Virus record (IMG/VR): IMGVR_UViG_2718218435_000004
DNA from: a virus
Taxonomy: Duplodnaviria; Heunggongvirae; Uroviricota; Caudoviricetes
Length of the DNA stretch: 37,062 bases
Reading direction: 5' to 3' (one strand)
The stretch's first letter is position 1, and every line of letters begins with the position of its first letter. The translations under genes and the position numbers were made by a program. Shown in pieces: positions 1-33,548 of this stretch. Below the pieces are notes generated by a model, which saw nothing but the letters and a program-made list of their open reading frames with translations, was not told the DNA's origin and ran no database searches.

Positions 1-903
1 TTATGAAAGCATAGACCGTTTACCCTCCCTGGGTACGACGGAACAGGGGTCCTGATGGATAATCACATCCGATCCCGGAAAACGCCGTAAAATAGCCTGC
101 TCTACCTGATCCGCCACCATATGTGCCTGAACCAAAGGCAGAGAGTCTTCCATTTCCAAATGAATCTGAATAAAGCGGGTCGGCCCTGACTGCCGCGTGC
201 GAAGATCGTGAGCGCCGCTAACACCCGGCCAGGAAGTCACGATATCAATAATTTCTTGCCGTTCTTCATCAGGCAATGCGCGATCCAGTAATGACTGTAC
301 CGCCTCATATCCCATGCGTAACGCGCTATATAAAATATAGATGCCGATTCCCAATGCAAACAGAGCATCGGCGCGATGCCAGCCGTACCAGGACAACCCC
401 AGCGCCAGCAGAATTGCACCGTTCATCATAACATCAGACTGGTAATGTAGCATATCAGCCCGCACCGCCTGGCTTTGCGTCCGGCGCACCACCCAACGCT
501 GAAACGAGACAAGGATAATCGTACAAATTAGCGCCACAATTGTCACGATAACCCCGACGCCTGGATCTGTCATCGGTGTTGGAGATATCAGATGTTGAAT
601 ACCCGTCAAAAACAGGAATAGTGCTGAACCGGAGATAAACATACTTTGCGCCAGCGCCGCGAGGGACTCAGCTTTACCGTGACCAAACGAGTGATTATCG
701 TCGGCAGGTTGCAGGGAATATCGCACCACCAGTAAATTCGTCAACGACGCGCCGATATCCACCAGCGAATCCACCAGCGCGGCGAGAATACTCACCGACC
801 CGGTATACCACCATGCAAAAATTTTAATCAGCAATAGCAGTGAAGCCATCGCCGTTGCAGCAATCGCCGCCCGACTGACCAGCCGTCCATAAGATTGATT
901 CAT
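1..903 (-). CDS. fieF: Host cation-diffusion-facilitator ferrous iron/zinc efflux pump FieF (YiiP)
   Basis: ORF 1..945 (-) contains [37 protein letters not shown]..., recognised as enterobacterial FieF (300 aa). Start placed at the internal Met (MNQSYG), 14 codons inside the ORF-track start. Confidence 0.9.
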
Positions 904-984
904 AAATACTCCCGCTATCAACTGACGGTAGTATAACGGAAGCAAATCATCTGCAATGCATTAAGCAGTAGGCAAATTGAGGAT

Positions 985-1136: not shown

Positions 1137-1139
1137 TGA

Positions 1140-1439: not shown

Positions 1440-2603
1440 TCACTCATCATCTTCTGTTTCGTACTCCACATCAGAAAGCCTGACCTCAAGCTCTAAGGAC
1501 GTCGTGAAGCCGCTATTATTCAGAAAATGTGTCACCTTAGTGATTGTCCAGTCCTGCTCGTCTATGACGCGCTTAAAGCCTGACACTCTGACCGGTGTTT
1601 CCGTGTAAATATCTGCACGACCGGTAGCCAGGATGATGGAGAACTCCGCAACGCCCCGTTGCAGTTTATCCCACTTCGCCTGAGCAGCACGCATGGCCTG
1701 TGCTTTCGTGGCATATACCGTGGTCAGGGCAAAAACGTTGTCAGCCTCACCGGCCATGTATTCACCTTCGCGCGCTTCCGGTACTTTTGGCACTTTCTTC
1801 TGCGTGACTGGTTTCGCTTTCGGGTGCTCCAGTGCGCGCAGGTGTTTTTCTTTCTTTTTGCGTTTCAGTTTTACCTTCTGCTTTTGCGGCTTCGGGTCTT
1901 TGGTGTGAAGCCACTTTGCCGTTACGCCGGTATAGGCTCCACGGTCAGCAATCGCAAAATGATGACGGTCGCCGTCGCTGCGGGTGATGGTAATCTGCGG
2001 GATTTTTTTACCGCTGGCCGTCACCCCCTGCCCCGCTTTGAGAAACAACAGTTTTCCCATTTTTACCGACACCTCACCGCCGTTGCGTTCAGCAAGGCGG
2101 GTCAGGAATTTTGCATCAGACTCCTGCGACTGGTCGATGTGCGGGATTTTAATTCCGGCCAGTGACGGAGCGACACTGGCTTCCAGCCTGTTACGGGAGG
2201 CTATCGCCTCAACAATCGCACCGAGCGTGGTGTCATGCCAGGAGCCTTCACGGCGGGAATTGAGCGTGCCACGAAAATCTGCACTCCGGGCCCGGATGGC
2301 GACCACATCCGGCGTGCCCCGGTGTTCTACCTCATCAACGGTGAATTTCCCTTTGCATACCAGGGCAAAACCTTTCCAGCCGATATACACCGTCAGAACA
2401 GCGCCACGAACCGGCAGTTCGACCTGCCCGTCGGCATCGTTCAGTTCAATATCAAGCTGATCAGCCTCAAAGCCCCGGTTATCCGTCAGGGTCATGCTCA
2501 TCAGACGGTCGCTGATATTGCCGGTAATATCCCTGCTGTCGAGCATCAGCATGTAATCCGGCGTCAGCGTACTGCCTGCATCAAATGTCAGCGCATCCAG
2601 CAT
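1440..2603 (-). CDS. D: Tail protein D (late control gene D)
   Basis: 387 aa, same length and N-terminus (MLDALTFDAGSTLTPDYMLMLDSRDITGNISDRLMSM...) as P2 gpD; sits between ogr and U as in P2. Confidence 0.9.
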   Translation of the reverse strand: MLDALTFDAGSTLTPDYMLMLDSRDITGNISDRLMSMTLTDNRGFEADQLDIELNDADGQVELPVRGAVLTVYIGWKGFALVCKGKFTVDEVEHRGTPDVVAIRARSADFRGTLNSRREGSWHDTTLGAIVEAIASRNRLEASVAPSLAGIKIPHIDQSQESDAKFLTRLAERNGGEVSVKMGKLLFLKAGQGVTASGKKIPQITITRSDGDRHHFAIADRGAYTGVTAKWLHTKDPKPQKQKVKLKRKKKEKHLRALEHPKAKPVTQKKVPKVPEAREGEYMAGEADNVFALTTVYATKAQAMRAAQAKWDKLQRGVAEFSIILATGRADIYTETPVRVSGFKRVIDEQDWTITKVTHFLNNSGFTTSLELEVRLSDVEYETEDDE

Positions 2604-3082
2604 TATTCCGCCCCCGTCATCCCCGTGAATCTGGTCGCCAGACTGCCGGCCTTACCGATGAGCGACTCCGCCTGTTTACCGATATCGCCATAAAGCGCGG
2701 CCAGTGATTCATCAACGCGGGTGAGCGACAGCGTAAAATCAATTTTCCGGGGTGTGCCGTCTGCAAAGAAAATACTCCCTGTTTCACTCACCTTGCTGAT
2801 GACATACATGCCGTAAATCATGCCTGTGCCATCCAGCAACGGCCACGCCCGGCCTTCCTCTGCCATCAGCCTGAGCGTGGTCATCGTCAGCTTGCCGCCG
2901 GTCAGTTCGGGATAAAGCACGCCGGCAAGCGTGATGTTTTCCTCGCCAACACCGAGAAACTGAAAGGCATCCCGTTTACCGATACGGGAATTTGACGGCC
3001 AGCGATAATCTGATTCGCGCTGCATGGTCTGGTGTGGCAGCGTCTGGCGCATAAAAACAAACATACCTAACGCGAGCATCAT
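2603..3082 (-). CDS. U: Tail protein U
   Basis: 159 aa, matches P2 gpU in length and sequence; its stop overlaps the D start. Confidence 0.9.
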   Translation of the reverse strand: MMLALGMFVFMRQTLPHQTMQRESDYRWPSNSRIGKRDAFQFLGVGEENITLAGVLYPELTGGKLTMTTLRLMAEEGRAWPLLDGTGMIYGMYVISKVSETGSIFFADGTPRKIDFTLSLTRVDESLAALYGDIGKQAESLIGKAGSLATRFTGMTGAE

Positions 3083-3096
3083 TTTTAGTCACCTCC

Positions 3097-5544
3097 TTAA
3101 CCGTCATGCATCATGCTGGCACGGGCGCGCACACGTTTATCCCGCTCGTATTTTTCGAGCGCATCCTGTAACTGGCGGTCGAGCTGTGTCCCCGGCGCAG
3201 TACCACCCGTCAGGCTGATGTGATATTCGTTTTTACTCTGGTCCACATAAGAGCGGCCAGCCGGTGCCGTGACCGGCTGATAAGCCTGATAGCCTGCATA
3301 AGAGCTGGTCGCCGGAATATAACCACCGGTGCCATACGTGGCGGCATGAGTTCTGGCGGCGGTCTGGTCAAGTGTGTCTGACTCTTTGTTGATAACACCG
3401 AGTTTTTCCAGTACCCAGTCAATACCGCTGCGCAGTTTGTTGAACGCATTAAGCGGCAGCATCAGCGCGTCAGCCAGTGCCTGCCCGAACATGACGCCCG
3501 TGTCACGGCAACGGTTCAGGGTGTCCTGGGTGGCTTTAACCGGAGCAATCAGGTTTGTAAACCACTGCCACGCGGCCTGTAACTTTTCGCCCAGCCAGTC
3601 AAACACCGGTTTCAGTGGCGTGAACAGTTCCCCCACCGGCGCAAAGGCCGCTTTCAGCCCTTCCACCACACCGCCAAAGAATGCGCTGACAGGCTCCCAG
3701 TATTTACGGATAAGCAACGCCCCGGCGACAATGGCAGCCACCACGGCCACAACCGGCCAGCTAATCGCCCCGATGGCCGTCATAACGGCACTACCAACCG
3801 TCGTGAAGATTGCCCCCATTGCGCCTGCTGCCGCGATGATGGCATTGATGCCGGTGATAACCGGCCAGGCTATGAGGCCAATGGCACCGATGACACCAGT
3901 CAGCGCCAGTGCACCACCGACAATGATGCCGATGGTTGACGCCAGTGATTTGTTTTTCTGTATCCAGCCGTCGAGTTTTAACACATACTTTGTGGCCGTC
4001 TGCGTGAGATTACGCAGTGCGCCTTCCTGTTGGTCAAACAGGTCAGTCCCCACCGCCTCATAAGCGGACTGAAACTCCTTAAAGTCACCGCCGAGGTTAT
4101 CCTGCATGATATTTACCAGCTCGGCGGTCTTCCCGTCTGAGGCTTTAAACGCAGCGGTCAGTTTGTCCAGCTTTCCGGTTGAGGCGGCAGTCATCAGCAC
4201 GGCGGCGGCTGAGCTGGCCTCCTCCCCGAAAATAGTTTTCATGTATTCAGCCTGCTGGGCAGTACCGAGCCGGTTTTTCTCAAAACTGGCCTGCATTTCT
4301 TTCAGAATGGTAAATATTGGCCGGGTGTTTCCCTTGCTGTCTGAGGTTTTCACTCCAAGCTCTTTGAGTGCATCCCATGCTTTTCCCGTCGGTGCCTGCA
4401 GGCGGCTTAACACGGCACGGCTTCCCGTCCCCGCCATTGAGCCTGTGATTTTTGCATCATGCAGCGCCCCGACCATTGCGGCGGTTTCTTCAATGCTGAC
4501 ACCGGCATTTTTTGCCACAGGTGCGGCATAGGTCAGCGCATCGCTCATGCCGTCAAAATCGGCGGCGGTTTTGTTCATCGTCATGGAGAGAACATCCCCG
4601 ATATGAGCGACCTTATCGTTTGAAAGCTGAAAGGCGGATTTCATCCCCATCAGCAGGGCGGCGTTTTCTTCCATCGTGCGGCGGTTCGCCAGCGCCATAT
4701 TCAGCGTGACCGGCGTTGCCGCCTGAATGGCATCAACATCCCCACCCGCTTTCGCGATGATTATCTGTGCACCGGCCGCATCATCCGCCGAGGCTGCGGT
4801 ATTGTCACCGAGCTGGCGCGCCTGTTTGCGTAGTGCGGTCATTTCGGCGGAGTCTTTTGCCACTCCGAGCACGGCCTGCAATTCTGAGTTTTTCTGCGCA
4901 AACTCATAACCGGGCATCAGCAGCTTAACTCCGGCCATCGTTCCCGCCGCCGCAATCCCCACACCGGCAGCGCCCACCGAGGCCATATTTCCGGCCAGTT
5001 CCTTTCCGGCCTGATAACGCTGTTTGACTGCGTTAAGTTTTGCCTGTTGCGCACTGACACGCGCCAGCGCATCACGCTGACGGTTAAGCTGTGCGGTGGT
5101 TTCACTGATACGGTTTTTCAGTCCCTGCTCATCATGTGCAAGATTGCGGGTATTAATTCCCACAGCGGCCAGTTCCCGCTGCTGGCGTTTAACGGAATCC
5201 GTCAGGCGGTTATATTTCGCCTGTAAGTCCTCCGCCGCACGCTTTGCGGATTCCAGCACTTTCGCCTGAGCACGGGTCGGACGTTCGGTGTTTTTAAACT
5301 GTGTGGCAAGGGCTTCGGCTTCCTGCCGTGCCTTTTCAAGTGCATGACCAGTCACGGCGAGCTGCGCACTGGTCTTGCGAAATCCCTCAATACGGGATGC
5401 GTGACCGTTCAGCTCGCGCAGTGATTTTTGTGTTTCCCGGATATCCCCCGACAGCGACTTGCTCGCTGTGCGGATGGATTTAAACGGGCGGGATGCCTGG
5501 TCAACAGCCCTGAGCAATACCTGTAATTTTACATTGTTACTCAT
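3097..5544 (-). CDS. T: Tail tape measure protein T
   Basis: 815 aa (P2 gpT is 815 aa); coiled-coil-rich N-terminal half and Gly/Ala-rich hydrophobic central region typical of tape measure proteins. Confidence 0.9.
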   Translation of the reverse strand: MSNNVKLQVLLRAVDQASRPFKSIRTASKSLSGDIRETQKSLRELNGHASRIEGFRKTSAQLAVTGHALEKARQEAEALATQFKNTERPTRAQAKVLESAKRAAEDLQAKYNRLTDSVKRQQRELAAVGINTRNLAHDEQGLKNRISETTAQLNRQRDALARVSAQQAKLNAVKQRYQAGKELAGNMASVGAAGVGIAAAGTMAGVKLLMPGYEFAQKNSELQAVLGVAKDSAEMTALRKQARQLGDNTAASADDAAGAQIIIAKAGGDVDAIQAATPVTLNMALANRRTMEENAALLMGMKSAFQLSNDKVAHIGDVLSMTMNKTAADFDGMSDALTYAAPVAKNAGVSIEETAAMVGALHDAKITGSMAGTGSRAVLSRLQAPTGKAWDALKELGVKTSDSKGNTRPIFTILKEMQASFEKNRLGTAQQAEYMKTIFGEEASSAAAVLMTAASTGKLDKLTAAFKASDGKTAELVNIMQDNLGGDFKEFQSAYEAVGTDLFDQQEGALRNLTQTATKYVLKLDGWIQKNKSLASTIGIIVGGALALTGVIGAIGLIAWPVITGINAIIAAAGAMGAIFTTVGSAVMTAIGAISWPVVAVVAAIVAGALLIRKYWEPVSAFFGGVVEGLKAAFAPVGELFTPLKPVFDWLGEKLQAAWQWFTNLIAPVKATQDTLNRCRDTGVMFGQALADALMLPLNAFNKLRSGIDWVLEKLGVINKESDTLDQTAARTHAATYGTGGYIPATSSYAGYQAYQPVTAPAGRSYVDQSKNEYHISLTGGTAPGTQLDRQLQDALEKYERDKRVRARASMMHDG

Positions 5545-5964
5545 TCGTGTTTCCGCTTCGCCGGAGCGCCTTTTCGCGCCATGTGATGAGTTCGGTCAGG
5601 CTCATGGGATACAGTTCTGATGGCGGCCAGTGAAATATCACTGCCACATCCGCCATCAGGTCATCGACCGAGAGATTTTTCGGAAACGTCACTGCACCGA
5701 GTTCGGCGACAAAAAACCGACCACCTTACCGGCCAGCGCCACAAGGTCAGGCAGTTCCAGCGCGGCGACTTCCTGCTCGGTCAGCATCGGTGCCGTCATG
5801 CGCGGCAGCACTTTAATCAGTGCATCGACTTCGGAGTTCGCGACTGCAGCCAGACTGACACCGCGCAGCGTCCCGGCATTGGGTTTCATCAGCGTGACCT
5901 GTTCGATAACCTGCTCACCACGTTTGACCGGATTGTCCAGGGTAATGACGTTTTCTTTGTTCAT
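5537..5964 (-). CDS. E+E': Tail assembly chaperone E+E', made by programmed -1 ribosomal frameshift
   Basis: The - strand mRNA reads GTC GGT TTT TTG TCG near 5710-5718, giving the slippery heptamer T-TTT-TTG a few codons before the E stop. The hand-translated -1 frame continues VAELGAVTFPKNLSVDDLMADVAVIFHWPPSELYPMSLTELITWREKALRRSGNTNE to a stop at about 5537-5539, for 85 + 57 = 142 aa, the known size of P2 E+E'. It ends just past the T start codon. Confidence 0.75.
5689..5964 (-). CDS. E: Tail assembly chaperone E
   Basis: 91 aa (MNKENVITLDNPVKRGEQVIEQVTLMKPNAGTLRGV...), matches P2 gpE and sits between FII and T. Confidence 0.9.
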   Translation of the reverse strand: MNKENVITLDNPVKRGEQVIEQVTLMKPNAGTLRGVSLAAVANSEVDALIKVLPRMTAPMLTEQEVAALELPDLVALAGKVVGFLSPNSVQ

Positions 5965-6020
5965 GGTTTTCTCACTTCTGAATCGGGGTTAACCGGTCAG
6001 CCAGGCTGACCGGATGAAAA

Positions 6021-6539
6021 TCACAGGCCGATATTGCGGCGGTGTTGCTCCAGCCGGTCGACGCCGTTCACCTTCTCAATCATGTTGATGGTGTCGATTT
6101 CGACCAGCTCCTTACCGTCCATCGTCAGCCGGAAATAGGTGCAGACCACGGAGATTTTCGACTCGGTGTCTTCTCCCTGTTTGCCCTCGCCGGTGTCGAT
6201 TTCTTTCTGACGGCCACGCATGACCACCTCGACGGCCACCGTTTCGCCGGTATCGTCGCGCTGGTAAGAGCCGGCAAAACGAATCGGTACGGCATCCACA
6301 CCGGTTGCGGCGTAAAGCTCCCAGATAACCGAATCCGGGAAGCCACCGAGCGACCACTCCATTGACAGCGCATCGTCATCAAGGCCGAGGTCTACCGGTG
6401 CGCTGCCGTTCATCCCCGCACCGCGATAGTTTTCGAGCTTACGGGTCAGTTTTGGCAGCGTGACGGACTTCGCGACGCCCTGATAGCTGTAGCCGTTCAG
6501 AAAGACGTTCATTAACTTGAGTTTGCGCGGCATTGCCAT
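6021..6539 (-). CDS. FII: Tail tube protein FII
   Basis: 172 aa, matches P2 gpFII (MAMPRKLKLMNVFLNGYSYQGVAKSVTLPKL...). Confidence 0.9.
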   Translation of the reverse strand: MAMPRKLKLMNVFLNGYSYQGVAKSVTLPKLTRKLENYRGAGMNGSAPVDLGLDDDALSMEWSLGGFPDSVIWELYAATGVDAVPIRFAGSYQRDDTGETVAVEVVMRGRQKEIDTGEGKQGEDTESKISVVCTYFRLTMDGKELVEIDTINMIEKVNGVDRLEQHRRNIGL

Positions 6540-6551
6540 CGGTCAGGCTCC

Positions 6552-7742
6552 TTAATTGCTGTTAACCGAGGTGACCAGATTTGCCAGGTATTTATCGGTA
6601 ATACGCTGGCGCAGGGTCAGGTTTTCAAGAGGAGGCACCGGGGTATAGTCGTAGTCGATATACAGTTTTCCGGCCTTGAGGGTTTCCGCATCGTTGGATT
6701 CTTCGCTGAACCAGCAGGTCGCATCCACGATATAGCCGTTTGTTTTCAGCTCACGGAATTTGGCATTGATGCCGTCAACGATGTCGCGAATCAGCGTTGC
6801 GGTGATGGGCTTGTCCACCGCCCACATGTGCGCCTCAGCCATCGTGTCGGCCAGCACCTGCGCGGTGCGGGTGTAGTTTTCAAAGAGGAACAGCGGGTCA
6901 TCAGAGCAGGTACGGTTACCCCAGAATCGGAAACCGTCGCGGCGAATCAGCGTAGTGACGCCTGACTCGTTAAGCAGGTCAGCATCGGTGCCGGACTCCT
7001 GCAAATCCCAGAATACAGATGCGCTGATGCCGGTAACACCGTTCACCCCGACATTGGACAGCGTTTTATGCCAGCCCTGCTCCTGGTCGATTCTGGCACG
7101 CAGACCCAGCGCACGGGCGGTGGCATACGCGGTGGCGGTGGTGCTGGTGACCGTATCCCATGCGAGGAAATCCGGCCAGATGACCATCAGCTCACGCTGG
7201 CTGAAATTCTGGCGGTAGGCTTTCACCTCGGAAATGGTTTTACAGCCCCATGCGCTGATATACCCGAAAGCGCGCAGCTTCTGACAGACTGATGCCAGTG
7301 CAACAGCCACCTCTTTGGTATCCAGCCCCGGCACGCCGAGAATACGCGGTTTAACACCGGTTACCGACTCCGCCGCCAGCAGGGCTTTCAGTCCGGTGTA
7401 CTGACCGTTTTCGTCGGTGGTGCCGATGATATTGGAAACGGTCTGCGCAAGTTTCGTTTCCTCGTCGTCGCCGGTGCCGTCTTCCACACGCACGACAACG
7501 GTGACCGGTTTTGACTGGTCGGCGATGGCCTGCAACGATGCCGCCAGCGTGCCTTTTTTACCGGCCTTTGCAATTGCGCTCTGCACATTGGTAATCAGCA
7601 CTGGTTTATTGAGGGGGAAGATTTCCGCATCCGCATCGCTGGCCGTGCAGACCATGCCAACAATGGCGGTGGATACGGTGGAAATGACGCGGGTGCCGTC
7701 GTTAATCTCCAGCACCTGCACGCCGTGATGATAGTCACTCAT
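6552..7742 (-). CDS. FI: Contractile tail sheath protein FI
   Basis: 396 aa, matches P2 gpFI (MSDYHHGVQVLEINDGTRVISTVSTAIVGMV...). Confidence 0.9.
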   Translation of the reverse strand: MSDYHHGVQVLEINDGTRVISTVSTAIVGMVCTASDADAEIFPLNKPVLITNVQSAIAKAGKKGTLAASLQAIADQSKPVTVVVRVEDGTGDDEETKLAQTVSNIIGTTDENGQYTGLKALLAAESVTGVKPRILGVPGLDTKEVAVALASVCQKLRAFGYISAWGCKTISEVKAYRQNFSQRELMVIWPDFLAWDTVTSTTATAYATARALGLRARIDQEQGWHKTLSNVGVNGVTGISASVFWDLQESGTDADLLNESGVTTLIRRDGFRFWGNRTCSDDPLFLFENYTRTAQVLADTMAEAHMWAVDKPITATLIRDIVDGINAKFRELKTNGYIVDATCWFSEESNDAETLKAGKLYIDYDYTPVPPLENLTLRQRITDKYLANLVTSVNSN

Positions 7743-8061: not shown

Positions 8062-8961
8062 TCAAAGAATTAGCACTTGCTCTTCACTAGAAACTATGGT
8101 TCTGACTTCACGCTCAAATACTGGATCCATTATCATTTTTCTATTTGTTGGAATAGTAAATTTACCGAGTACCATGACAATGCTACTCAACGGAAATAAT
8201 TTTGGAGTAACATTTCCTAATTGAATCGTAGGATATATATTAAAGCCCCCTTTTATCCTCATTGGCGAACCTTCAATGAAGTGTCGATAATTAAATTTCG
8301 CCATAGGGATTCTCGCCACATGCACTTTCATAATTACAGCAACCTGAGCTATTTTTACTTTCTGGAGGTAAGTTGACAATCGTTCTAACTGCGTTGTTTC
8401 ATAGAAAAAATCAGACCACGTTACAGTACTTGTTCCAGTAACAATTTTTATGCTGTTTCTCTTGTTGGGGTGAGCTTTTCCATATTCATAGATCTCCCGT
8501 AAGCTATCCATGTTCTTCACATAAGGGGCTTTCCGACCTCTCTTGACATAAACGCGGTCTGTAGTATCAGAAGGTGGATTTGCCTGCATAGCTGCAGCTT
8601 TTCTGCTTAATTTAGAGATATCATCTTCATCGAGTATATGTATACGGAATATATTATTACCTGTGGCAAGCGCACGGCTGATATCATGACTGGAATCACT
8701 TGCATAAATTGTATTCAATCCTGAAGTTCCATACTGGCATAATTTGTCATGCGTGAAATTTTTTTCCAGTCTAAAGAAGGCGGGGATATGCAAGGTTTTA
8801 TTAAAACTCCGACGAATATGGCTTTTGACATACACCAAATGAGCAGAGCAATTTGGGTCAGGACATTTGAGTGGATAGGGATTAACACTATAATTAAAAG
8901 TATTTACATTTACTAAAATCTGATTGTTATCAATAGCCTGAGTTATACGAATACCACTCAT
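8062..8961 (-). CDS. Hypothetical 299-aa protein in the Z/fun cargo slot between FI and G; no family recognised
   Basis: ORF with an ATG start preceded by a strong GGAGGAG Shine-Dalgarno; markedly AT-rich relative to the flanking tail genes; occupies the position of the non-essential Z/fun gene of P2. Contains a Cys/His-rich segment (LKCPDPNCSAHLVYVKSH) but no motif I can assign. Confidence 0.7.
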   Translation of the reverse strand: MSGIRITQAIDNNQILVNVNTFNYSVNPYPLKCPDPNCSAHLVYVKSHIRRSFNKTLHIPAFFRLEKNFTHDKLCQYGTSGLNTIYASDSSHDISRALATGNNIFRIHILDEDDISKLSRKAAAMQANPPSDTTDRVYVKRGRKAPYVKNMDSLREIYEYGKAHPNKRNSIKIVTGTSTVTWSDFFYETTQLERLSTYLQKVKIAQVAVIMKVHVARIPMAKFNYRHFIEGSPMRIKGGFNIYPTIQLGNVTPKLFPLSSIVMVLGKFTIPTNRKMIMDPVFEREVRTIVSSEEQVLIL

Positions 8962-9705: not shown

Positions 9706-11727
9706 TTAAACGCTCGCTACATTATACCAGGTGCCATTTATATACTTTTGAACGGGTCTGTAATAAACGCCCGCTATATTATCGGCAGAGTTGGACCCTG
9801 TATCCTGAACATTAATACCAGACAATACATGACCTGACGGGCACTGGAAATTCCATGTTTGCCAGTTGTTCACTCCATAATATTGCTGTGACCCAAGTCG
9901 AACATCTTTCACATATCTGGAATCAAAATTGCCATAGTTGCCAGGAATAACTTGCGAGCCACAAAGCCAGTTACCGTTATTATCCATGTACGCCTGACCA
10001 TCGGTGCCATTGGCTGTCCTTGAGTTATTAATCATGTAGATGCCAAATTGCTTGTTCCCCAGTCCACCTATCATGAACTTGCGGTCAGCGTGATTCTGGC
10101 GAAGCAACGCCTGAGCGCTATCAGTGTTAACTATATTTTTCCCAAAGATAGCGTTGTTATCGCGCATCTGAATCCACATACCATTACTGCTGTTAATAGC
10201 AAAACGGTCTGAAAGCGTCTCCCCTGAAACATTAAGGCCACGCCCCATCGAAACAGCGCCAGTAGCGTTATTAATCCATAATGGCCTTAATCCGTTATAA
10301 GTCCCCATGTTGTCACCGGAGTTTGTCAACATGAAGTATGTATTTGAACCATCATTACGAATAAAGAATCCGTAATTACCATAAGCAATACGTAGGCCGT
10401 TTGCTGATTTTGATATGACTTCGCCATTTACAATGGCATTGACAAGAACATACAAAGCATCCCATTTAAGATTCATCAGGTCTTTTGTTGTAGTACTCTG
10501 GCGGCTTCTCCATTTGAAATATTCATTGCCGTTATCCCCCGTTTCAAACCACATGAATGAATCAGTGTCACCATCGGCATCATTTTTAAATCCAATCTTC
10601 GCCCAGTCAGTATTTCGAATCCAGGCAAGGATTGAGTCGTTTTCAAAAGTAAGTCCACCGGACAAGGTATCGCCATTTTTTTGCACGGCGTTCCCGGCTC
10701 GGTTTACCGTTTCCTGTAAACCGAGATATTCGATAACGGCGGCAACGGTCGATTTAGCCAGAATATCCCGCCCGACTTTTGTCAGGGTTGCCAAGCTGGC
10801 AACATCATTCCCAATAAAATACGGAAACCTGTCTGCCGCAGTAGCAAGCCCCGCCAGTGCCGTCAGGGTGGCATCTTTCGGTTGCTTACCCGCAAGCGCA
10901 TTAGTCATGGTGGTAGCAAAATTCGGGTCATTGCCCAGCGCCGCCGCCAGCTCGTTCAGCGTATTCAGTGCGTCAGGCGACGAGTCTACAAGGGCGGCAA
11001 TCGCGGCCATAACGAAAGCCGTGTTTGCGATCTGAGTATTATTCGTTCCCTGTCGCGCAGTTGGCGTCGTTGGCGTTCCGGTCAGTGCAGGGCTGTTTAA
11101 TGGCGCTTTCTTGTTCGTTTCATCCATTACCGTCTTAACGGCTTTCGGCGTTGCAGCCAGTGTTTCAGACGTGCTGTTGGTCGCACTGCTTAACTGAGTA
11201 AAACCTTTTGCGGTCAGCGAGGCGTCAGGGTGACGTCGTGACTGTTCATGTTCTGCAATTTTGTCATCAACGTAATCCTGCGTCGCCATCACCGTTGTGG
11301 TGTCGATGGTCAGATCCACTGAGGCCACACTGCTGACGATAATGACCATGCGGCAGGTCTGCGAACGTCCTGAGCCTTCGGCAAGGGCTGGCTTATAACT
11401 TTCGGCCATGTTCGCCACGGCAATTAACGTTCCCGCATCATCGTACAGGCCAAGCTCACGCATCCAGAAACCGCCCACCTCCGGCGGAATAACCAGCTCT
11501 GCGATAATATAATTACTGTTTCGTTTGTCCTGGCTGATTTTGTTCAGCGCATGTCGCCAGACTTCGTGGATAAGCCCGGTCTGTCCGGCATCCGGGACAG
11601 GCAATTTACCACCGCCATCCCCGACGGCCATCGTGGTAATGTTGACCTTCCGCCCTCCCGGCGCGGTTGCCGCTGCCAGCTTTGCTGCACCGGCAGTGGT
11701 GATAACGGTTTTGAATTTTGTGCTCAT
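9706..11727 (-). CDS. H: Tail fibre protein H
   Basis: 673 aa; N-terminus [40 protein letters not shown]... matches P2 gpH; the C-terminal part is Asn/Gly-rich and likely the variable receptor-binding region. Confidence 0.9.
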
Positions 11728-17948: not shown

Positions 17949-19490
17949 ATGCCAACAGTTCCAATTTCTATGAGAAAACTTAAAGAAATTCTTAGGCTTA
18001 AATACGGTGTTGGACTCAGCCATCGACAAATTGGTCGTAGTCTTGCAATCTCCCCTTCCGTTGTATCCAGATATGCTAATCGGGCGGCTCAACTTGGCAT
18101 AAAGCAGTGGCCCTTACCTACAGGATGGGATGATACAAAACTAAAACATGCGTTCCTTCAGACCCAGGTTAAGATGAAGAAGCACTCTCTGCCTGACTGG
18201 GCTACAGTACACCGGGAACTGCGTAATAAATGCGTGACGCTGCAGCTACTCTGGGAAGAATACTGTGAGCGTAATCCAGGCGGTTTTTACAGCTATAACC
18301 ATTACTGCCGGATGTACCGTGAATGGCTCAAAACCACTTCACCATCAATGCGTCAGGTACATAAAGCTGGCGAAAAACTTTTCGTTGATTACTGTGGACC
18401 TACCGTTGGCGTTACCGACCCTGAGACCGGAGAAATAAGAACTGCTCAGGTCATCGTAGCTGTTCTCGGGGCATCAAGTTACACATGGGCAGAGGCCACC
18501 TGGTCTCAGCAGCTTGAAGACTGGGTGATGAGTCATGTTCGCTGCTTCCAGTGGTTGGGTGGCGTTCCTGAACTTGTTGTTCCGGACAATCTGAAAAGCG
18601 CCACATCCAGGGCATGTAAGTATGATCCTGACGTTAACCCTACCTACCAGCAGATGCTTGAGCATTATAATGTCGCAGTTTTGCCTGCGCGGCCACGTAA
18701 ACCGAAAGATAAAGCCAAAGCTGAAGTTGGCGTTCAGGTTGTTGAACGCTGGATCATGGCCCGAATCAGGCATGAGATCTTCTACAGCCTTGCATCGCTT
18801 AATCAGCGCATTCGGGAGTTGCTGGAAAGACTGAATAACAAAATAATGCAGAAGTTGGGTTATTCACGTGCAGAACTCTTCATCCAGCTTGATAAACCCG
18901 CACTGAAGCCTCTTCCTGAAGCCAGTTACAGTTACACCCTGGTGAAGAAAGTCAGAGTTCATGCCGATTACCACGTGGAAATCGACAAACATTACTACTC
19001 GGTTCCATGTTCGCTGTTAGGCCAGCAACTGGAAGCATGGATCTCCGGAGAACTGGTAAGACTCTTCAATCAGGGGCAGGAGGTTGCTGTGCACCCGCGC
19101 AAGCGTACTTATGGCTACAGTACCCGCAACGAGCACATGCCTGAAGCTCATCGACAGCATGCCACCTGGACGCCAGAGCGTCTTCTGGAATGGGCGGGGC
19201 ACATAGGCAGTGAAACTCATAGTTATGTGCTTCATATACTGAACTCTCGTCCACATCCGGAACAAAGCTATCGCTTCTGCCTTGGACTCCTGAACCTTCA
19301 TAAAAAATACAGTAAAGCCAGACTTAATGCAGCATGTGCAAGAGCTCTGAAAACAAAGGTATGGCGTCTGTCAGGTATTAAATCGATCCTGGAAAAAGGT
19401 CTGGATAAACAACCTGTTCAGGATCCAAAACCAGATCTGTTATCCACGATGGAACACGAAAACGTACGCGGCAGTGAGTATTACCACTGA
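17949..19490 (+). CDS. istA: IS21-family transposase IstA
   Basis: 513 aa; N-terminal HTH region followed by a DDE transposase core; immediately followed by istB. Confidence 0.9.
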   Translation: MPTVPISMRKLKEILRLKYGVGLSHRQIGRSLAISPSVVSRYANRAAQLGIKQWPLPTGWDDTKLKHAFLQTQVKMKKHSLPDWATVHRELRNKCVTLQLLWEEYCERNPGGFYSYNHYCRMYREWLKTTSPSMRQVHKAGEKLFVDYCGPTVGVTDPETGEIRTAQVIVAVLGASSYTWAEATWSQQLEDWVMSHVRCFQWLGGVPELVVPDNLKSATSRACKYDPDVNPTYQQMLEHYNVAVLPARPRKPKDKAKAEVGVQVVERWIMARIRHEIFYSLASLNQRIRELLERLNNKIMQKLGYSRAELFIQLDKPALKPLPEASYSYTLVKKVRVHADYHVEIDKHYYSVPCSLLGQQLEAWISGELVRLFNQGQEVAVHPRKRTYGYSTRNEHMPEAHRQHATWTPERLLEWAGHIGSETHSYVLHILNSRPHPEQSYRFCLGLLNLHKKYSKARLNAACARALKTKVWRLSGIKSILEKGLDKQPVQDPKPDLLSTMEHENVRGSEYYH

Positions 19491-19501: not shown

Positions 19502-20251
19502 ATGATGAATCATCTTTACGAACAACTGACCGCACTTAAACTCACCGGCTTCCGTGATGCGCTTAAAAAGCAACTTGCTCAGCCGGGCACATACCAGGAG
19601 CTGGGCTTCGAAGAACGCCTGTCATTACTGACAGCAGAAGAACTAACCTGCCGTGAAAACAGGAAGGCAGAGCGTCTGATCAAACATGCACGGTTCAGAC
19701 TTAATGCTGAGTTATCAAAGCTGGATTATCGTAACAATAGAGGGCTGGACAGGGCCCTCATCCGTTCACTCAGTCAGGGAAACTGGTTAACCCTGAAACA
19801 AAATATTTTACTGACCGGGGCCACCGGCAGCGGTAAAACGTTCCTGGCATGTGCACTTGGTCATAATGCCTGCCGACAGGGATACAAGGTCTACTATTAT
19901 CGCCTTAAAGCGCTGATGGAACAGTGCTATCAGGGGCATGCTGATGGAAGATACAGCAAACTTTTGACCAGGCTGAATAATAGCGATCTGCTGCTTCTGG
20001 ATGACTGGGGGCTGGAACCTCTCTCATCAGAACAGCGTAGCGACCTGCTGGAAATAGTGGATCTGATGTACCAACGAGGCTCAATCATCGTAGTGAGCCA
20101 GTTGCCGGTGGAAAACTGGTACAAAATGATCGGAGACTCCACACATGCGGATGCCATCCTAGATCGACTGGTTCATGGCAGTATCAAGATCGAACTTAAA
20201 GGAGAATCAATGCGGAAAATACAATCTCCGTTGACCGAAGGAGATCAGTGA
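19502..20251 (+). CDS. istB: IS21-family helper ATPase IstB
   Basis: 249 aa with Walker A GATGSGKT and Walker B LLLLDDWG, typical of IstB AAA+ proteins. Confidence 0.9.
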   Translation: MMNHLYEQLTALKLTGFRDALKKQLAQPGTYQELGFEERLSLLTAEELTCRENRKAERLIKHARFRLNAELSKLDYRNNRGLDRALIRSLSQGNWLTLKQNILLTGATGSGKTFLACALGHNACRQGYKVYYYRLKALMEQCYQGHADGRYSKLLTRLNNSDLLLLDDWGLEPLSSEQRSDLLEIVDLMYQRGSIIVVSQLPVENWYKMIGDSTHADAILDRLVHGSIKIELKGESMRKIQSPLTEGDQ

Positions 20252-27247: not shown

Positions 27248-28252
27248 ATGGATCAGAGAATCCTTGAACATGAAGCGATTAAACAACTTAGCAAAAAATC
27301 AGTGCGCAAGTTGTTTGGGGTTCACGATATCCCTAGAGCCAGTTCACCATTTCGCTATCCAGGAGGTAAAGACAAACTTGCCTCATTTCTCGCTATTTTT
27401 CTTGTACATAATAAGTTAAATGGTGGCCGGTTTATTGAACCATTTTGTGGTGGTGCTGGAGCATCACTTTCTTTACTATTGGGCGGATATGTAAAAGAGA
27501 TCCACTTAAATGATAAGAACTATGCTTTATTTTGCTTTTGGGATCAATTAATTAACAACACTGATAATTTATTGGATATGGTATATCAGAATATACCATG
27601 CATTGACGATTGGCATAAACAAAAGAAAATCTACCAAACGAGTATTATTGACCCCAATAAATACACCAAACTCGAATATGGTTTTAGTGTATTCTATTTA
27701 AACAGAACAAACAGATCTGGAGTACTAAGCGCTGGGCCAATTGGCGGTTTAGACCAGTCTGGAAAATATAAAATTGATTGCAGATACACTGTAAGTACGC
27801 TTATTAAAAAGCTCGAAAAAATAGCTAGCATGCGTGACTCTATATTCGTTTATAACGAGCACTGCATTGATTTTTTAAAACGTTTCAATAGTAAAGATAA
27901 CTATGATCATGATTTCGTTTATCTAGATCCTCCTTATGTTAAAGAGGGGCGCAACATTTATTCAAAAAACTTTTGCTTCGATGACACTCAGCATCGCGAG
28001 CTTAAGGATTACATAGCTGGTTATGCAAATCGTTGGTTAATTTCTTATGACGATCACCCTCTAGTGCATGAATTATACTCAAAACATGGCACAAGAGCCG
28101 TTGAGATAAGTTACGCCATGAATAAAGCAAAAGTTGGAAAAGAATTAATGATAGCGGATTCTCGCTTAAGAATGCCAGAATCATTATTCTCTGTTGATAT
28201 ATTAAAATCTGGCGAAATACCAATGAAGAAAAAAGTAGTTAAAATGGCCTGA
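27248..28252 (+). CDS. Dam-like (D12-class) N6-adenine DNA methyltransferase
   Basis: 334 aa with FRYPGGK near the N-terminus, the SAM-binding motif EPFCGGAGAS and the catalytic DPPY motif; AT-rich; lies where P2 has old/tin. Confidence 0.85.
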   Translation: MDQRILEHEAIKQLSKKSVRKLFGVHDIPRASSPFRYPGGKDKLASFLAIFLVHNKLNGGRFIEPFCGGAGASLSLLLGGYVKEIHLNDKNYALFCFWDQLINNTDNLLDMVYQNIPCIDDWHKQKKIYQTSIIDPNKYTKLEYGFSVFYLNRTNRSGVLSAGPIGGLDQSGKYKIDCRYTVSTLIKKLEKIASMRDSIFVYNEHCIDFLKRFNSKDNYDHDFVYLDPPYVKEGRNIYSKNFCFDDTQHRELKDYIAGYANRWLISYDDHPLVHELYSKHGTRAVEISYAMNKAKVGKELMIADSRLRMPESLFSVDILKSGEIPMKKKVVKMA

Positions 28253-28254: not shown

Positions 28255-29274
28255 TCAGGCCGCTTCTGCTTGTAATGTTTCAGTTGTAGAAATCACATAT
28301 TGTGAAATATCATTTATTTCATCTTTCCGTTCTATTAGTAGCCCTGGATCTGATACCAACAGTTCTAACCCTTTCTTAAAGCAAGTAGGTAACCGGAGTC
28401 TATGCAATACTGCGCCAAACTCCTCTGCGACTAGTGAAATATGGTCTTTCTTTATAGATTCATCATCACTCTCAAAATCAAAAGGTATAACAATAGCATC
28501 AGTTATTCTATATATTCTTTGCGCTAACCAGTGATTTTGTATGTTTGCAATATCCTCTTTTATTGCTTTTGAACGCCAATCTTGGCCGCTAGCAACTTGA
28601 GCAAAATAAATTTGCTTGCTTCCCGGATATGTATCGCGGGGATTATTATCTTTCCATGCAATCACATCAATACCAGCATCTTTATGAGGTCGTGTTTGCA
28701 AATAACGATTAACATCCTCAAATGGTCTAACCCTTCCTTCACCAATTAAATCAACAGCTCTAGTAAGAGCATCATAAAACTTTGAACTATCAGGTCTTGG
28801 CCAGCCGAATGAAATACTATGCCCCTGAACATAGCCAGCTAATGCAATTGTTGCAGCAATCTGTAATAAGTCTCGGTGTTTTCCTGTCGGCAAATCTACC
28901 CCATTAAATAGCCGTGATGCCGACATATGAGAAAAATACAAACAATATAAGTATATATGCTGATCTACGGTAAGTAATTCCAATGTTTCCTTTGCCAATT
29001 CCAAACATTGCGTTTCTTCATTAAAAATAAAAGGATAGCTATCCCCGAGTATATCCTTTCTTTGTTGATATTGTTCTAATAGTCTTTGTATTTCATTTTC
29101 GACTTCAGCATCTTCTTCGCCTATATCGGAAGATGTAAATGAATCTAAGTTCTCTAGAATATTCCTTAGTTCTGAAATTCGCATTGTAAAATATACATTT
29201 GATAAGCAAGATAACTCAAGCCAATCCAATTTGACTTGAATATGATGACTCTCTGGATAAGGTTGCAACTGCAT
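28255..29274 (-). CDS. Hypothetical 339-aa protein, second gene of a two-gene operon; possible nuclease-like partner (tentative)
   Basis: ATG 3 nt after the stop of the upstream ParB-like gene with a GAGGAA Shine-Dalgarno; AT-rich; convergent with the MTase, stops 2 nt apart. Segment HKDAGIDVIAWKD...IYFAQVASGQ loosely resembles Mrr-type PD-(D/E)xK motifs, but this is not established. Confidence 0.7.
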   Translation of the reverse strand: MQLQPYPESHHIQVKLDWLELSCLSNVYFTMRISELRNILENLDSFTSSDIGEEDAEVENEIQRLLEQYQQRKDILGDSYPFIFNEETQCLELAKETLELLTVDQHIYLYCLYFSHMSASRLFNGVDLPTGKHRDLLQIAATIALAGYVQGHSISFGWPRPDSSKFYDALTRAVDLIGEGRVRPFEDVNRYLQTRPHKDAGIDVIAWKDNNPRDTYPGSKQIYFAQVASGQDWRSKAIKEDIANIQNHWLAQRIYRITDAIVIPFDFESDDESIKKDHISLVAEEFGAVLHRLRLPTCFKKGLELLVSDPGLLIERKDEINDISQYVISTTETLQAEAA

Positions 29275-29277: not shown

Positions 29278-30405
29278 TTATTCCTCAATGCTCTGCAATT
29301 GATATTGAACCTTAGATACCTTTCTCTTAAACTGTTCGATGTAGTTCTTCGTCGTATCGTCTAACGAATCTGTTCTATCTAAAACAGAAGATATAGTATC
29401 AAGTTGTTTGTTTATTTCCAAAAAAGCATCTTTAATGTGTTGAAGAGGGTCACCCGCTTGCTTATATAATTCAGAAAGACTTTCAACTCCAGACTTAAAA
29501 GCTTCATATGAAGCCTCATTCGCTAAAACCTCACCAAAATATTTCAAATCAGGATTTTGCGAAGAGATCAACGATGCTCTTTTATCTTTTTTATACCCAT
29601 AAAGACCGATCAGAACATCTCTGAGTTTATCAAGATTCCTTTGCGGTACAGGATTCTTTCTGAGTGTAATATTCCAATCTTTCTCCAATCCTAAAAAATC
29701 TTTATATTCAGTTCTATTCAAAGCCGTATACAAATGAGAAAAAGAAAATTTTGGTGACATTCTGTCGACATGAATATCATATATTTCTTGAGTTTTAGCC
29801 TGTTCAAGAACAAACATAGCACTAACTATAGAACGAACAGTATTGTTACTGTCACCAAGTTTTTTTGTTATATGTTCAATAGTGAGACCGTTATCTCTTT
29901 CACTTATAAACCATTTATATGCGAACTGTGCTTTAGCAAACGAATCCCATTTATGGGGACCATTAACATGTTTAAATCCAATAAATGAACGAGCTTCTGA
30001 CTCATCATTAACAAGATAAACAGCAACTTCCTTGAGGCTATCCAAAACCCAAGAATCTATATTTTTTGGAACGACAACTCGACATTTTTGTGCCAAGCCC
30101 GGTTCAGTAAGCAATTTGATGGCAGCTAAACGACGATTACCTTCTAAGACGACATACTTATCATCTTTTTTCATGACAATTAAAGGTTCAATCGACATAT
30201 ATCCATTTTCAGAAATGGATTTAATCAATTCTTCTAAATCTGCAGTATCAGATAATGCTTTAACCAACTCATATGAGTCAGCATTATCATTAAAGCTTTT
30301 CCCGTTATAAAGCCTTGGATTTCTAGCATCCAAGATTAACTCATCCGGGGAAATCATCTGTGTTTTGAGCGGTTCTAAGACAGTTTTTGGCATTTTATGC
30401 ACCAT
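29278..30405 (-). CDS. ParB/Srx N-terminal-domain protein (ParB-like nuclease/NTPase fold), first gene of the two-gene operon
   Basis: 375 aa; NPR box near the N-terminus (LILDARNPRLY) and SIEPLIVMKKDDKYVVLEGNRRLAAIKLL resembling the ParB GxRR arginine motif; AT-rich. The true start may be the first ATG or the ATG four codons downstream. Confidence 0.7.
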   Translation of the reverse strand: MVHKMPKTVLEPLKTQMISPDELILDARNPRLYNGKSFNDNADSYELVKALSDTADLEELIKSISENGYMSIEPLIVMKKDDKYVVLEGNRRLAAIKLLTEPGLAQKCRVVVPKNIDSWVLDSLKEVAVYLVNDESEARSFIGFKHVNGPHKWDSFAKAQFAYKWFISERDNGLTIEHITKKLGDSNNTVRSIVSAMFVLEQAKTQEIYDIHVDRMSPKFSFSHLYTALNRTEYKDFLGLEKDWNITLRKNPVPQRNLDKLRDVLIGLYGYKKDKRASLISSQNPDLKYFGEVLANEASYEAFKSGVESLSELYKQAGDPLQHIKDAFLEINKQLDTISSVLDRTDSLDDTTKNYIEQFKRKVSKVQYQLQSIEE

Positions 30406-30607: not shown

Positions 30608-30811
30608 TCATCTGCGTGGTGGTGGCGTAACTCTTGATTGACCGATATGGTTAAACCGCCCGTAATTATCCCGGACTATTTCGGCACACCCGACCAACTC
30701 GTCGGGCGTCAGATTTTCGTTGACCATAATCCGCTGTAAACGCTGAACAATAGCCATCAGCTTGATATTTTTAGTTTTATGGTGCGGTATCTCGCCTGGT
30801 ATTCTGTGCAT
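30608..30811 (-). CDS. Small hypothetical protein (about 67 aa) translationally coupled to the upstream gene
   Basis: ATG overlaps the stop of the 30811..31266 gene (TAATG); no recognisable motif. Confidence 0.35.
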   Translation of the reverse strand: MHRIPGEIPHHKTKNIKLMAIVQRLQRIMVNENLTPDELVGCAEIVRDNYGRFNHIGQSRVTPPPRR

Positions 30812-31266
30812 TATCCAAGCCACCCGTTTTGCTGTGCACGCTCCATCTGTTCATCTGAATAGTTCCATGCTCCATCCGTGGCAACCATTGCCCCGCCAGA
30901 CATCCCCGTCTCTGGTTCATACATAACAGCAAGGCCGAGCTGATGCATAATTTCATGATTAATTCTGAATACCAGGCCACGCTCACTAAGTTCTTTCCAG
31001 TTCACAATCTCATATGCGCCTGTATTAAGCAGCTCAATACTTAGCAAGACATAGTCTTCCAGCCAGTCTGACAGGTCAGTAACATCTGTTATCCGGGCTT
31101 CAACCTTTCGCCCCGTATACACACCCTGCCCCCATTCATGCAAAATCAACGTGTCCCCGCGCTCATAATTACGGTCATTTTTCCGAAACTCTGCGCGTTT
31201 CTTTCCTTCCAGCACAAGGTCAAAATATTTTGCGTGCAGCTTTATCTCGTGAATTTTTGCCATCAT
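30811..31266 (-). CDS. Hypothetical protein with an N-terminal ASCH/DUF3850-like (PUA-fold) domain, immediately downstream of A
   Basis: Start ATGATG overlaps the A stop; N-terminal MAKIHEIKLHAKYFDLVLEGKKRAEFRKNDRNYERGDTLILHEW resembles ASCH/DUF3850 domains; C-terminal half unassigned. Confidence 0.6.
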   Translation of the reverse strand: MMAKIHEIKLHAKYFDLVLEGKKRAEFRKNDRNYERGDTLILHEWGQGVYTGRKVEARITDVTDLSDWLEDYVLLSIELLNTGAYEIVNWKELSERGLVFRINHEIMHQLGLAVMYEPETGMSGGAMVATDGAWNYSDEQMERAQQNGWLG

Positions 31267-33548
31267 GTCCACTCCATTACTGTTGAGAATCCCGGCCACT
31301 CATCAGCGACCGGATACGTGAATTTTTTCCCGTCATAATTTACAGTCGCACCACGCGCCAGCGCCTCAAGCTCCCATCGCTGCGGCCTGATACCGTTCTG
31401 AGCAAGGTCAACGCGGATACGGGTGATTTGCAATCGTTCAGACCTGGTCAGTCTGGCAGATGGTGCAATTTCATGCGGTTTTAACATGCTTCCGTTTCTT
31501 TGCTGACGGTTTGGTCTTCTCAGGCCGTGTTTTAATGCGCCCCTGAGCGCCCTCACGACCTCCGGGTCATTCCATTCGATAACACCATCATCAACCAGAT
31601 TTAGCACTGCTGCAGCGTGCTCAGAAGGTGTGGGAGCCGGTAACGAAGCATCACTACCGGTGAGCTTTCCACAGTTATTGACAGGACTCCGAGGCGCGGC
31701 GATGCCGCTTTTTAAAGTCAAAGGCTCAACGACCGGAACTTTCGGCACAATGCGCCAGTCCGTCGTTCTGGTGATATGAATATGACGCGCGCCGAGATGC
31801 GGCGCGTAAATACCGACCACTCTCTCGACTTCTTCCTCGTACTCGTTAACGTCACTCGACGGGCTACGGGCAACCCTGACAGTCTGACAATCGCGCGGGA
31901 CATTTGCCCCACCCTGCGCGCTGATATACAACGCAAAATCACCACTGTCTGCGGCAGCGCGAGCAGCCTCGACGCGTTCGTCAAACTCATCAGCAATACT
32001 GACGCCGCGAGGTAATTTGCGTAGTTCACGGTAAGCCCCCATTGTCGGCAGGCCAACCGTTTTAAATTGCGGAATGCGCCACGTTGACGCCCATGCGGTA
32101 ACAGCCGCGGCAGTGTCTTTCAGCGGCCTGCCGGTATCGTTATCGAGCTGACCATCCAGTGCATAGCCGTCGATGTTTTTTGAAATGTATTTCGCGATAT
32201 ACCCCGCAGCACCGCCCCGATTAAGGTGTTTTGCCTGAAAACGGTTTCGCGCGGCTCCTCTTTCGTCGCCATCCTCTTTGAGCGCATAGCGACGCATGAT
32301 TTCGATAATCTGGTTACGCTGGCGCGAATTACAAAAAAGCATCATATGCCAGTGCGGCGTTCCGTCGTGGTGTGGCTCGACGACACGCAAACCGTAGACC
32401 TGTAAATCATTATCCTTGAATGCCGTGCGCATCAGGCTCCAGATACGGCAGAGATAACGCTGCGCATCCTTTGGATTAAATGCCTCATCGTTCCAGCCGT
32501 GATTAAGCTGCACGGTTTTACTTTCGCCTTTTCCTACCTGACGTGTCGGGTGATACTTTGACGGCGCGGTCAGCGTGATAAACATCCCCACATCACCCTC
32601 TGCAGCGGCGTAACGCTCAATACCGGCAATGGTGTTCATCAGCTCCATCCGGCGAATTTCAGGATTAGAAATACTGCCCATCACCTTACTGATAAGGTCG
32701 ATGCGCTCGCCGGTTTCCCTGTTTTCAAGGTCACACGATTTAAGAAATTCCAGATTTGCCTGGCGGCGCGCACGCACATCACGAATGGCATGTTTACTGG
32801 CATAAGGTGAACGGTCTTTATTGACCTCCCCGACAGCAATCAGTAACGCCTCATGCCAGCGCATACGCTGGCCTTTAAGCTGACTAATCCACCACTCATC
32901 GTTAAACAGGCGGGCAATGGCAGAATATGCCTGCCTCGTGGTCATCTGCCCTTTACGGTATTTTCTCCAGTACAGCGGGGAAATATTGAAAGCACGTGCA
33001 GCGCCAGCAACATGACCATACAGGTGAGCCTGCGCCTCATCCGTAAACAGCGATTCTTTTTCGCCATGGGCATCCACCCAGGCATCGCAGAGTTCCTCAT
33101 ACATCATGAAAAGCTGCGATGAGATACGGGCGGCAAACTTTTTCAGCTCCTTGTCATTCATTCCCGGCAGGCGCGCATAGTGGTCACGCTCTGCCAGAAA
33201 CAGCAACGACGCGTCGGTGTTCATTTCATGGCGCTGATTCACACGCTCAATGCGCGGCCATAAACGACGCTGAAAAGTGGATGTGAGGAAATAAAACCCG
33301 TGCACCGGGCTTTTATTGCGCCGGATGTAGTCATAGCGTGAAGTAAACAGCGAGCGCAAAAAGTAAGGCAGGCGGTTAATCGTGGATAAAACACCTTGCA
33401 CCTGACGCATCTCATCACGTGTAAGGGGTCTTTCGCGCCCGACGGCCTCGCGTGGCGCGTTCCATGCATAAGCACCGGTAAACATCTTACCGGTGCCTGC
33501 GGCAAATGCTGACGGAGGGACAAAACGCCCGGAGGCTTTAACGGCCAT
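31263..33548 (-). CDS. A: Replication initiation protein A (rolling-circle nicking endonuclease)
   Basis: Internal start MAVKASGRFVPPSAFAAGTGKMFTGAYAWNAPREAV... gives 761 aa, matching P2 gpA. Confidence 0.9.
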   Translation of the reverse strand: MAVKASGRFVPPSAFAAGTGKMFTGAYAWNAPREAVGRERPLTRDEMRQVQGVLSTINRLPYFLRSLFTSRYDYIRRNKSPVHGFYFLTSTFQRRLWPRIERVNQRHEMNTDASLLFLAERDHYARLPGMNDKELKKFAARISSQLFMMYEELCDAWVDAHGEKESLFTDEAQAHLYGHVAGAARAFNISPLYWRKYRKGQMTTRQAYSAIARLFNDEWWISQLKGQRMRWHEALLIAVGEVNKDRSPYASKHAIRDVRARRQANLEFLKSCDLENRETGERIDLISKVMGSISNPEIRRMELMNTIAGIERYAAAEGDVGMFITLTAPSKYHPTRQVGKGESKTVQLNHGWNDEAFNPKDAQRYLCRIWSLMRTAFKDNDLQVYGLRVVEPHHDGTPHWHMMLFCNSRQRNQIIEIMRRYALKEDGDERGAARNRFQAKHLNRGGAAGYIAKYISKNIDGYALDGQLDNDTGRPLKDTAAAVTAWASTWRIPQFKTVGLPTMGAYRELRKLPRGVSIADEFDERVEAARAAADSGDFALYISAQGGANVPRDCQTVRVARSPSSDVNEYEEEVERVVGIYAPHLGARHIHITRTTDWRIVPKVPVVEPLTLKSGIAAPRSPVNNCGKLTGSDASLPAPTPSEHAAAVLNLVDDGVIEWNDPEVVRALRGALKHGLRRPNRQQRNGSMLKPHEIAPSARLTRSERLQITRIRVDLAQNGIRPQRWELEALARGATVNYDGKKFTYPVADEWPGFSTVMEWT

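Follow-up and report, generated by a model that had tools for sequence, protein, structure and literature searches.

The tail operon of the P2-like prophage in IMG/VR record IMGVR_UViG_2718218435_000004 almost certainly carries the programmed -1 ribosomal frameshift of bacteriophage P2, which joins gpE to the E' extension. The record, 37,062 nucleotides of Caudoviricetes DNA given as one strand, was analysed over its whole length and is called the window below. Judged from its sequence, the prophage in the window should make, by ribosomal slippage near the end of gene E, a 142-residue protein, E+E', beside the 91-residue chaperone gpE. The site is already known and ordinary: it is identical to the published P2 site. 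No point in the sequence speaks against a frameshift of the P2 type.

The features concerned, by position in the window, are these:

3097..5544, minus strand: gene T, tape measure protein of 815 residues, homolog of P2 gpT (start ATG 5544..5542; PF10145 PhageMin_Tail, 2.4e-45)
5537..5710, minus strand: E' extension in the -1 frame, 57 sense codons and stop TAA 5539..5537 (translation)
5537..5964, minus strand: composite E+E' coding region for the predicted 142-residue frameshift product, 85 residues from frame 0 and 57 from frame -1
5689..5964, minus strand: gene E in frame 0, tail assembly chaperone of 91 residues (ATG 5964, TGA 5691..5689; list of open reading frames and translation)
5710..5716, minus strand: slippery heptamer T TTT TTG, of the form X XXY YYZ in the E frame (pattern search and sequence)
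5719..5727, minus strand: Shine-Dalgarno (SD)-like AAGGTGGTC, candidate 5' modulator, 2 nucleotides upstream of the heptamer (predicted duplex)
5726..5728, minus strand: TAA in the -1 frame, 9 nucleotides upstream of the heptamer (sequence and frame analysis)
6021..6539, minus strand: gene FII, tail tube protein, immediately upstream of E, homolog of P2 gpFII (PF04985 Phage_tube, 2.3e-60)

Gene E thus has the tail tube gene FII upstream and the tape-measure gene T downstream, the three lying on the minus strand in an operon of the order FI-FII-E/E'-T-U-D; sheath, gpU and gpD homologs were found around FII-E-T by Pfam. The heptamer TTTTTTG stands at 5716..5710 on the minus strand, where the E-frame codons GGT TTT TTG specify Gly83-Phe84-Leu85 of a protein whose C-terminal end reads ...LAGKVVGFLSPNSVQ. 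The original prediction had placed these codons about six before the E stop; exactly six sense codons (S P N S V Q) lie between TTG and the TGA at 5691..5689. The G of TTG (G5710) is re-read as the first base of GTC in the -1 frame, and re-translation from this base met no early stop, yielding the 57 sense codons that had been claimed, VAELGAVTFPKNLSVDDLMADVAVIFHWPPSELYPMSLTELITWREKALRRSGNTNE. The E' peptide begins VAELGAVTFPK and ends SGNTNE. It is followed by TAA 5539..5537, which lies inside ATGAGTAA; the T start codon, ATG 5544..5542, is in the same string, and the -1 frame does end, as predicted, just after it. The 85 residues before the shift and the 57 after it add up to 142, the size given for P2 E+E'.

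How much room is there for a productive shift? The TAA at 5728..5726 closes the -1 frame 9 nucleotides before the heptamer, and the shift is thereby limited to 34 nucleotides. By frame analysis this overlap of the 0 and -1 frames holds one heptamer only, TTTTTTG at 5716..5710. Beyond the P2 clade this TAA is not conserved, and the overlap windows there run from 34 to 574 nucleotides.

How close is the match to P2 itself? By blastn against P2, the window is a nearly complete P2-like prophage in reverse orientation; its tail operon occupies window positions 1050-7961 and the FII-E-T region is collinear with P2 17429..24342. The 701 nucleotides around the site matched 82 phage records and are 98.4% identical to P2 (AF063097); gene E is about 98% identical to P2 gene E. 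In direct alignment, the DNA from about codon 52 of E through the T start, the heptamer and all of E' included, is 100% identical to that of P2. The first 160 nucleotides of E hold one amino-acid change (N29 here, S29 in P2) and seven silent substitutions. In an exact-sequence look-up, the deposited P2 gpE+E' (AAD03292.1, NP_046780.1 and UniProt O64312, 'Tail assembly protein E'') equalled our reconstruction except at N29/S29, which bears out the size and identity expected of the product.

The P2 record AF063097 annotates the same arrangement. It holds a two-piece coding sequence (CDS) described as 'gpE+E'; shares amino terminus with gpE; -1 frameshift; essential tail protein', and marks the base that follows the heptamer with a misc_feature, 'site of -1 translational frameshift'. 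The curated junction, ...GFLVAELG..., keeps Leu and continues with Val. PMC3091744, which cites Christie et al. (2002) and Xu et al. (2004), locates the -1 shift of P2 at TTTTTTG and gives 91 residues for E and 142 for E+E', there without a downstream hairpin. The window feature and P2 gpE/gpE+E' (AAD03291/AAD03292) have in common the gene, its position, the heptamer, the E' frame, the overlap with T and the sizes of 91 and 142 residues; the two phages differ in their cargo genes, in the immunity region and in an insertion sequence (IS) present in the window prophage.

Both halves of the fused product match Pfam families. Residues 7-85 correspond to PF10109 (Phage_TAC_7; 2.6e-12, 47 bits against a cut-off of 25) and residues 104-139, encoded in the -1 frame only, to PF06528 (Phage_P2_GpE; 1.2e-21, 76 bits against a cut-off of 23). 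When solved structures were searched by sequence with an E+E' profile, no match fell below E = 0.5. That the site is the P2 tail-chaperone frameshift, as first proposed, follows from the complete DNA identity over the annotated P2 site, from the two domains and from the position between FII and T.

If the heptamer serves a purpose, is it retained among relatives? Five scans of viral contigs in IMG/VR provided 385 usable loci in 20 clusters, and at every one of the 385 the 0/-1 overlap includes a heptamer of the form X XXY YYZ in frame. The conservation that had been asserted for the site is thus upheld: the heptamer is T TTT TTG at 366 of the 385 loci, G GGA AAG at 10, T TTT TTA at 5 and T TTT TTC at 4. 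Of 416 phage records matched in a tblastn search with the fused protein, 397 contain both of its halves, in two frames. Among 17 loci that represent different Peduoviridae genera, the homologous codons contain in-frame T TTT TTG in 14 (see also PMC3091744), and the remaining three, unlike the window, use A AAT TTT, G GGA AAG or C CCT TTC. The two-domain, two-frame layout between the tube and tape-measure genes is shared by phage 186 (orf51/orf52, gene H), phiCTX, RSA1, SopEPhi and Burkholderia phages KS5, KS14 and KL3. These other Peduoviridae E/E' pairs differ from ours in sequence, with 45-74% protein identity, and in the distance from heptamer to E stop, which varies from 15 to 66 nucleotides. 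Close relatives are common, the 701-nucleotide stretch being found in 1586 of 5426 complete E. coli genomes (about 29%).

Ahead of TTT stands a codon for G, T, P, S, D or L according to lineage, always with T as its third base. TTT and TTG are retained even in high-GC hosts, while the neighbouring codons vary freely. An amino acid that changes beside a fixed T and a fixed TTT TTG places the constraint at the level of the nucleotide, not of the protein.

How would the ribosome obtain two proteins from this site? Most ribosomes would read E to its TGA and release the 91-residue gpE. At U UUU UUG, a minority would slip while the P site holds tRNA-Phe paired with UUU and the A site holds tRNA-Leu paired with UUG; the two tRNAs would move back one base and presumably re-pair with UUU UUU. 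Leu would be incorporated, GUC (Val) would be read next, and translation would go on for 57 codons in the -1 frame. The resulting gpE+E' of 142 residues would consist of the first 85 residues of gpE and a new C-terminal domain. Tandem slippage of this kind predicts the junction peptide VVGFLVAELGAVTFPK, and its order, Leu and then Val at GUC, agrees with the curated P2 junction.

The likeness to G/GT of phage lambda, drawn in the original prediction, holds for operon position and for logic. Lambda G and G-T are likewise a pair with a common N-terminus, arising from a low-level -1 shift near the end of a gene just upstream of the tape-measure gene, and G/GT lies, as E/E+E' does here, between the tube and tape-measure genes. 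The lambda heptamer is G GGA AAG. Studies of the lambda G/G-T chaperones reportedly include those of Levin and co-workers (1993) and of Xu and co-workers (2004, 2013, 2014). The lambda tail is non-contractile, unlike the contractile tail of P2. In Pfam the fused product matched PF10109 and PF06528 only, with no match to the families of lambda gpG and gpT. The resemblance is functional and positional, without detectable homology. By analogy with G/GT, the shared E part may bind the tape-measure protein T, and the E' part would be expected to recruit the tail tube protein FII; a fixed low rate of shifting would then set the E:E+E' ratio for tail assembly. In lambda, a G/GT ratio of roughly 30:1 is needed for tail assembly, and neither protein is found in the virion (PMC5009743).

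Could the layout be an accident, a meaningless T-rich heptamer that happens to overlap an open -1 frame? The window has 19 copies of TTTTTTG where 10.9 would be expected. In its six-frame open reading frames (ORFs), the -1 frame stays open for 57 codons or more after 16% of the in-frame X XXY YYZ heptamers, and a heptamer near a stop with a long -1 extension is found at seven comparable sites. The geometry of the site alone is no more than chance would give; since an in-frame heptamer with a long -1 ORF is not rare in the window, we do not rely on it as evidence. The site is non-random because the -1 frame matches PF06528 at 1.2e-21, because the DNA is identical to that of the annotated P2 site and because the heptamer is conserved at 385 of 385 loci, and against these a chance overlap has no standing. 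Or might E' be a separate small gene with an internal start, for example GTG at 5692, made with no frameshift? The ORF list does contain such a frame, a GTG ORF of 51 residues (5692..5537), and RefSeq E. coli genomes, with many phage records, annotate a separate 'GpE family phage tail protein'. The start, however, lacks conservation: the equivalent codon of phage 186 is ATA, and annotated starts vary by record. The -1 peptide, on the other hand, is conserved from the heptamer on, upstream of any such start (VAELGA, VTGFGG, VAEFGG), and the heptamer is kept at synonymous sites, which a separate gene would not require. Since the start is unconserved, the peptide conserved ahead of it and the heptamer constrained, independent initiation is exceedingly improbable; the curated P2 product, moreover, is the fusion.

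Transcriptional slippage would place the change of frame in the message instead. RNA polymerase would add a U at the run of six T, and the ribosome would read through as ...GFFVAELG..., with the junction peptide VVGFFVAELGAVTFPK. The site is indeed a homopolymer at which one extra U puts E' in frame, and U7/A7 runs may cause indels in mRNA (PMC4066793). NCBI also holds two proteins of 142 residues encoded by one ORF with the GFF junction, RJK13013.1 and QTN08932.1, from which we take the T run to be prone to indels at the level of DNA or of sequencing. Efficient slippage by E. coli RNA polymerase is said, after Baranov and co-workers (2005), to occur at runs of about nine or more, and six T is shorter than the runs generally associated with it. 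X XXY YYZ is retained even in relatives that lack a long homopolymer, their heptamer being G GGA AAG, A AAT TTT or C CCT TTC. The last base of the heptamer, G (or A, C), is conserved, as expected of re-pairing in the A site, and the P2 record calls the shift translational, with Leu at the junction. Slippage of the polymerase is thus very improbable as the main source of E+E', and may operate as a minor route. The two one-ORF records merit a remark of their own. Both are public E. coli records with the junction GFFVAELG, and the gene would carry seven T, not six; such alleles either reflect errors in sequencing the homopolymer or belong to prophages in which the shifted frame has become fixed and which would make no plain gpE.

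What weighs against a working ribosomal frameshift in this prophage? The translational nature of the shift and the essentiality of E+E' were taken from the P2 GenBank annotation and the literature, and are second-hand as regards the experiments. The -1 motifs that proved highly efficient when measured in E. coli do not include U UUU UUG (PMC4066793). A search for a 3' stimulator found none: over the 50 nucleotides downstream of the heptamer in 12 lineages, z against shuffled controls ranged from -1.55 to +0.90, with no common fold. A weak motif with no 3' stimulator leads us to expect a low efficiency, and shifting is probably at the percent level. Finally, a 2.6-kb non-P2 insertion at 17755-20337, between the P2 X and Y positions and on the strand opposite to the late genes, encodes a protein of 513 residues (17949..19490) with rve integrase core and Mu-transposase C-terminal domains and one of 249 residues (19502..20251) that matches IstB_IS21 at 2.2e-67. 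These domains mark the insertion, which lies within the late O operon, as an IS21-family element, and the prophage may therefore be defective and may not make virions; the F operon itself is intact.

In the window itself, z is -0.31 over the 50 nucleotides after the heptamer and -1.98 over 90 nucleotides. A 5-base-pair hairpin, CGCCG/CGGUG, was considered as a stimulator and rejected; it starts 1 nucleotide after the heptamer, too close for a canonical stimulator, the residues of both frames dictate its stem, and distant relatives do not keep it. The absence of conserved downstream structure agrees with PMC3091744. E. coli dnaX (A AAA AAG), another of the closest known systems, has both a 5' SD-like sequence and a 3' hairpin. 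Like the E site it has an X XXY YYZ heptamer for tandem slippage, and in the P2 clade the E site has a strong anti-SD-complementary sequence 5' of the heptamer. Unlike dnaX, the E site has no stable 3' hairpin or pseudoknot 5-9 nucleotides downstream that we could find, and the shift lengthens the E product whereas it shortens that of dnaX.

If the motif is weak and no 3' structure assists it, what might bring about a useful rate of shifting? A 5' element that pauses or tensions the ribosome could explain it. AAGGTGGTC (5727..5719) is complementary to the 3' tail of 16S rRNA, GAUCACCU, with a predicted duplex of -14.0 kcal/mol; in the P2 clade, and in several other clades too, no other anti-SD match in E is as strong. 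Across 59 distinct contexts the mean anti-SD energy at this position is -10.4 kcal/mol, against a background of -2.2. Of 12 lineages sampled, 11 seemed to have a strong element. Set against synonymous recodings, the match exceeds their mean strength in 12 of 13 divergent lineages, equally strong recodings making up a median fraction of 0.08, where the null assumes uniform codon choice and the lineages are related. By clade, it is strong in the P2 clade (-13.4) and the L268 clade (-16.8) and moderate in two others. It is absent from the Kp4872-3-like clade (69 distinct sequences, -4.0) despite T TTT TTG, and from the G GGA AAG lineages as well.

A universal stimulator it cannot be, given its absence from the Kp4872-3-like clade and the G GGA AAG lineages. 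SD-like stimulators of -1 shifts lie 9-14 nucleotides from the site (PMC5009743), and the element here is 2-4 nucleotides away. It may be a by-product of the conserved residues (E/K)-V-(V/I). We regard AAGGTGGTC as a doubtful candidate for a functional 5' modulator of the P2-type frameshift in some lineages. A literature search, which did not extend to Christie et al. (2002), found no additional discussion of stimulators of the P2 frameshift.

Outside the collinear genes, the window holds non-P2 insertions at 7961-9101, 17755-20337 and 27077-31043, and its immunity/integrase end is divergent. The first occupies the position of the P2 Z/fun cargo, between the tail fibre genes and FI; its ORF of 299 residues on the minus strand (8062..8961), which has no Pfam and no PADLOC match, is a candidate lysogenic-conversion or defence gene. 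At 27077-31043 the P2 old/tin cargo position is filled by other genes. These comprise a D12-class adenine methyltransferase (27248..28252; PD-Lambda-5_B, 7e-94), an ORF of 339 residues with no match (28255..29274), a protein that matches the N-terminus of PD-Lambda-5_A (29278..30405; 4.6e-22, with a weak ParB_N) and an ASCH/DUF3850+DUF7415 protein (30811..31299). Judged from these matches, the region resembles a defence cassette of the PD-Lambda-5 kind. The tail fibre gene H (9706..11727; region 9101-11727) is a mosaic that lacks similarity to P2 at about 9750-10423, and gene G shares only 88% identity with its P2 counterpart. At the cox/C/int end (35292-37062) identity is no more than 70-79%, which suggests that immunity and integration specificity differ from those of P2. 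The left flank (1..945) is presumably host DNA and encodes a protein of the cation-efflux (CDF) family.

A second heptamer, A AAA AAC at 33834-33840 on the minus strand, is in frame within the orf82 homolog, which encodes a small zinc-finger protein, and precedes its stop by seven codons. The -1 frame continues for 98 codons into the orf83 homolog, so that a shift there would fuse Orf82 to Orf83. The P2 sequence, the only one with which conservation was compared, is identical. This heptamer is probably a coincidence of two overlapping genes.

What, then, does the E/E' site mean for the family? As biology it is textbook recoding, to which nothing new is added here. The SD-like modulator, if true, would act at a very short spacing that falls outside the 9-14 nucleotide rule derived from dnaX. 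The practical value lies in annotation. In automated annotation the locus is usually divided in two: a 'phage tail assembly protein' and, beginning at an arbitrary internal codon, a short 'GpE family phage tail protein'. The right annotation is one joined CDS, complement(join(5710..5964, 5537..5710)), with a -1 shift at 5710; RefSeq and phage records that hold the 91-residue gene and a spurious small 'GpE family' gene could be corrected in the same way. For the E/E' family as a whole, the survey provides the rule by which the point of fusion may be annotated: T TTT TTG or, failing that, T TTT TTA, T TTT TTC or G GGA AAG.

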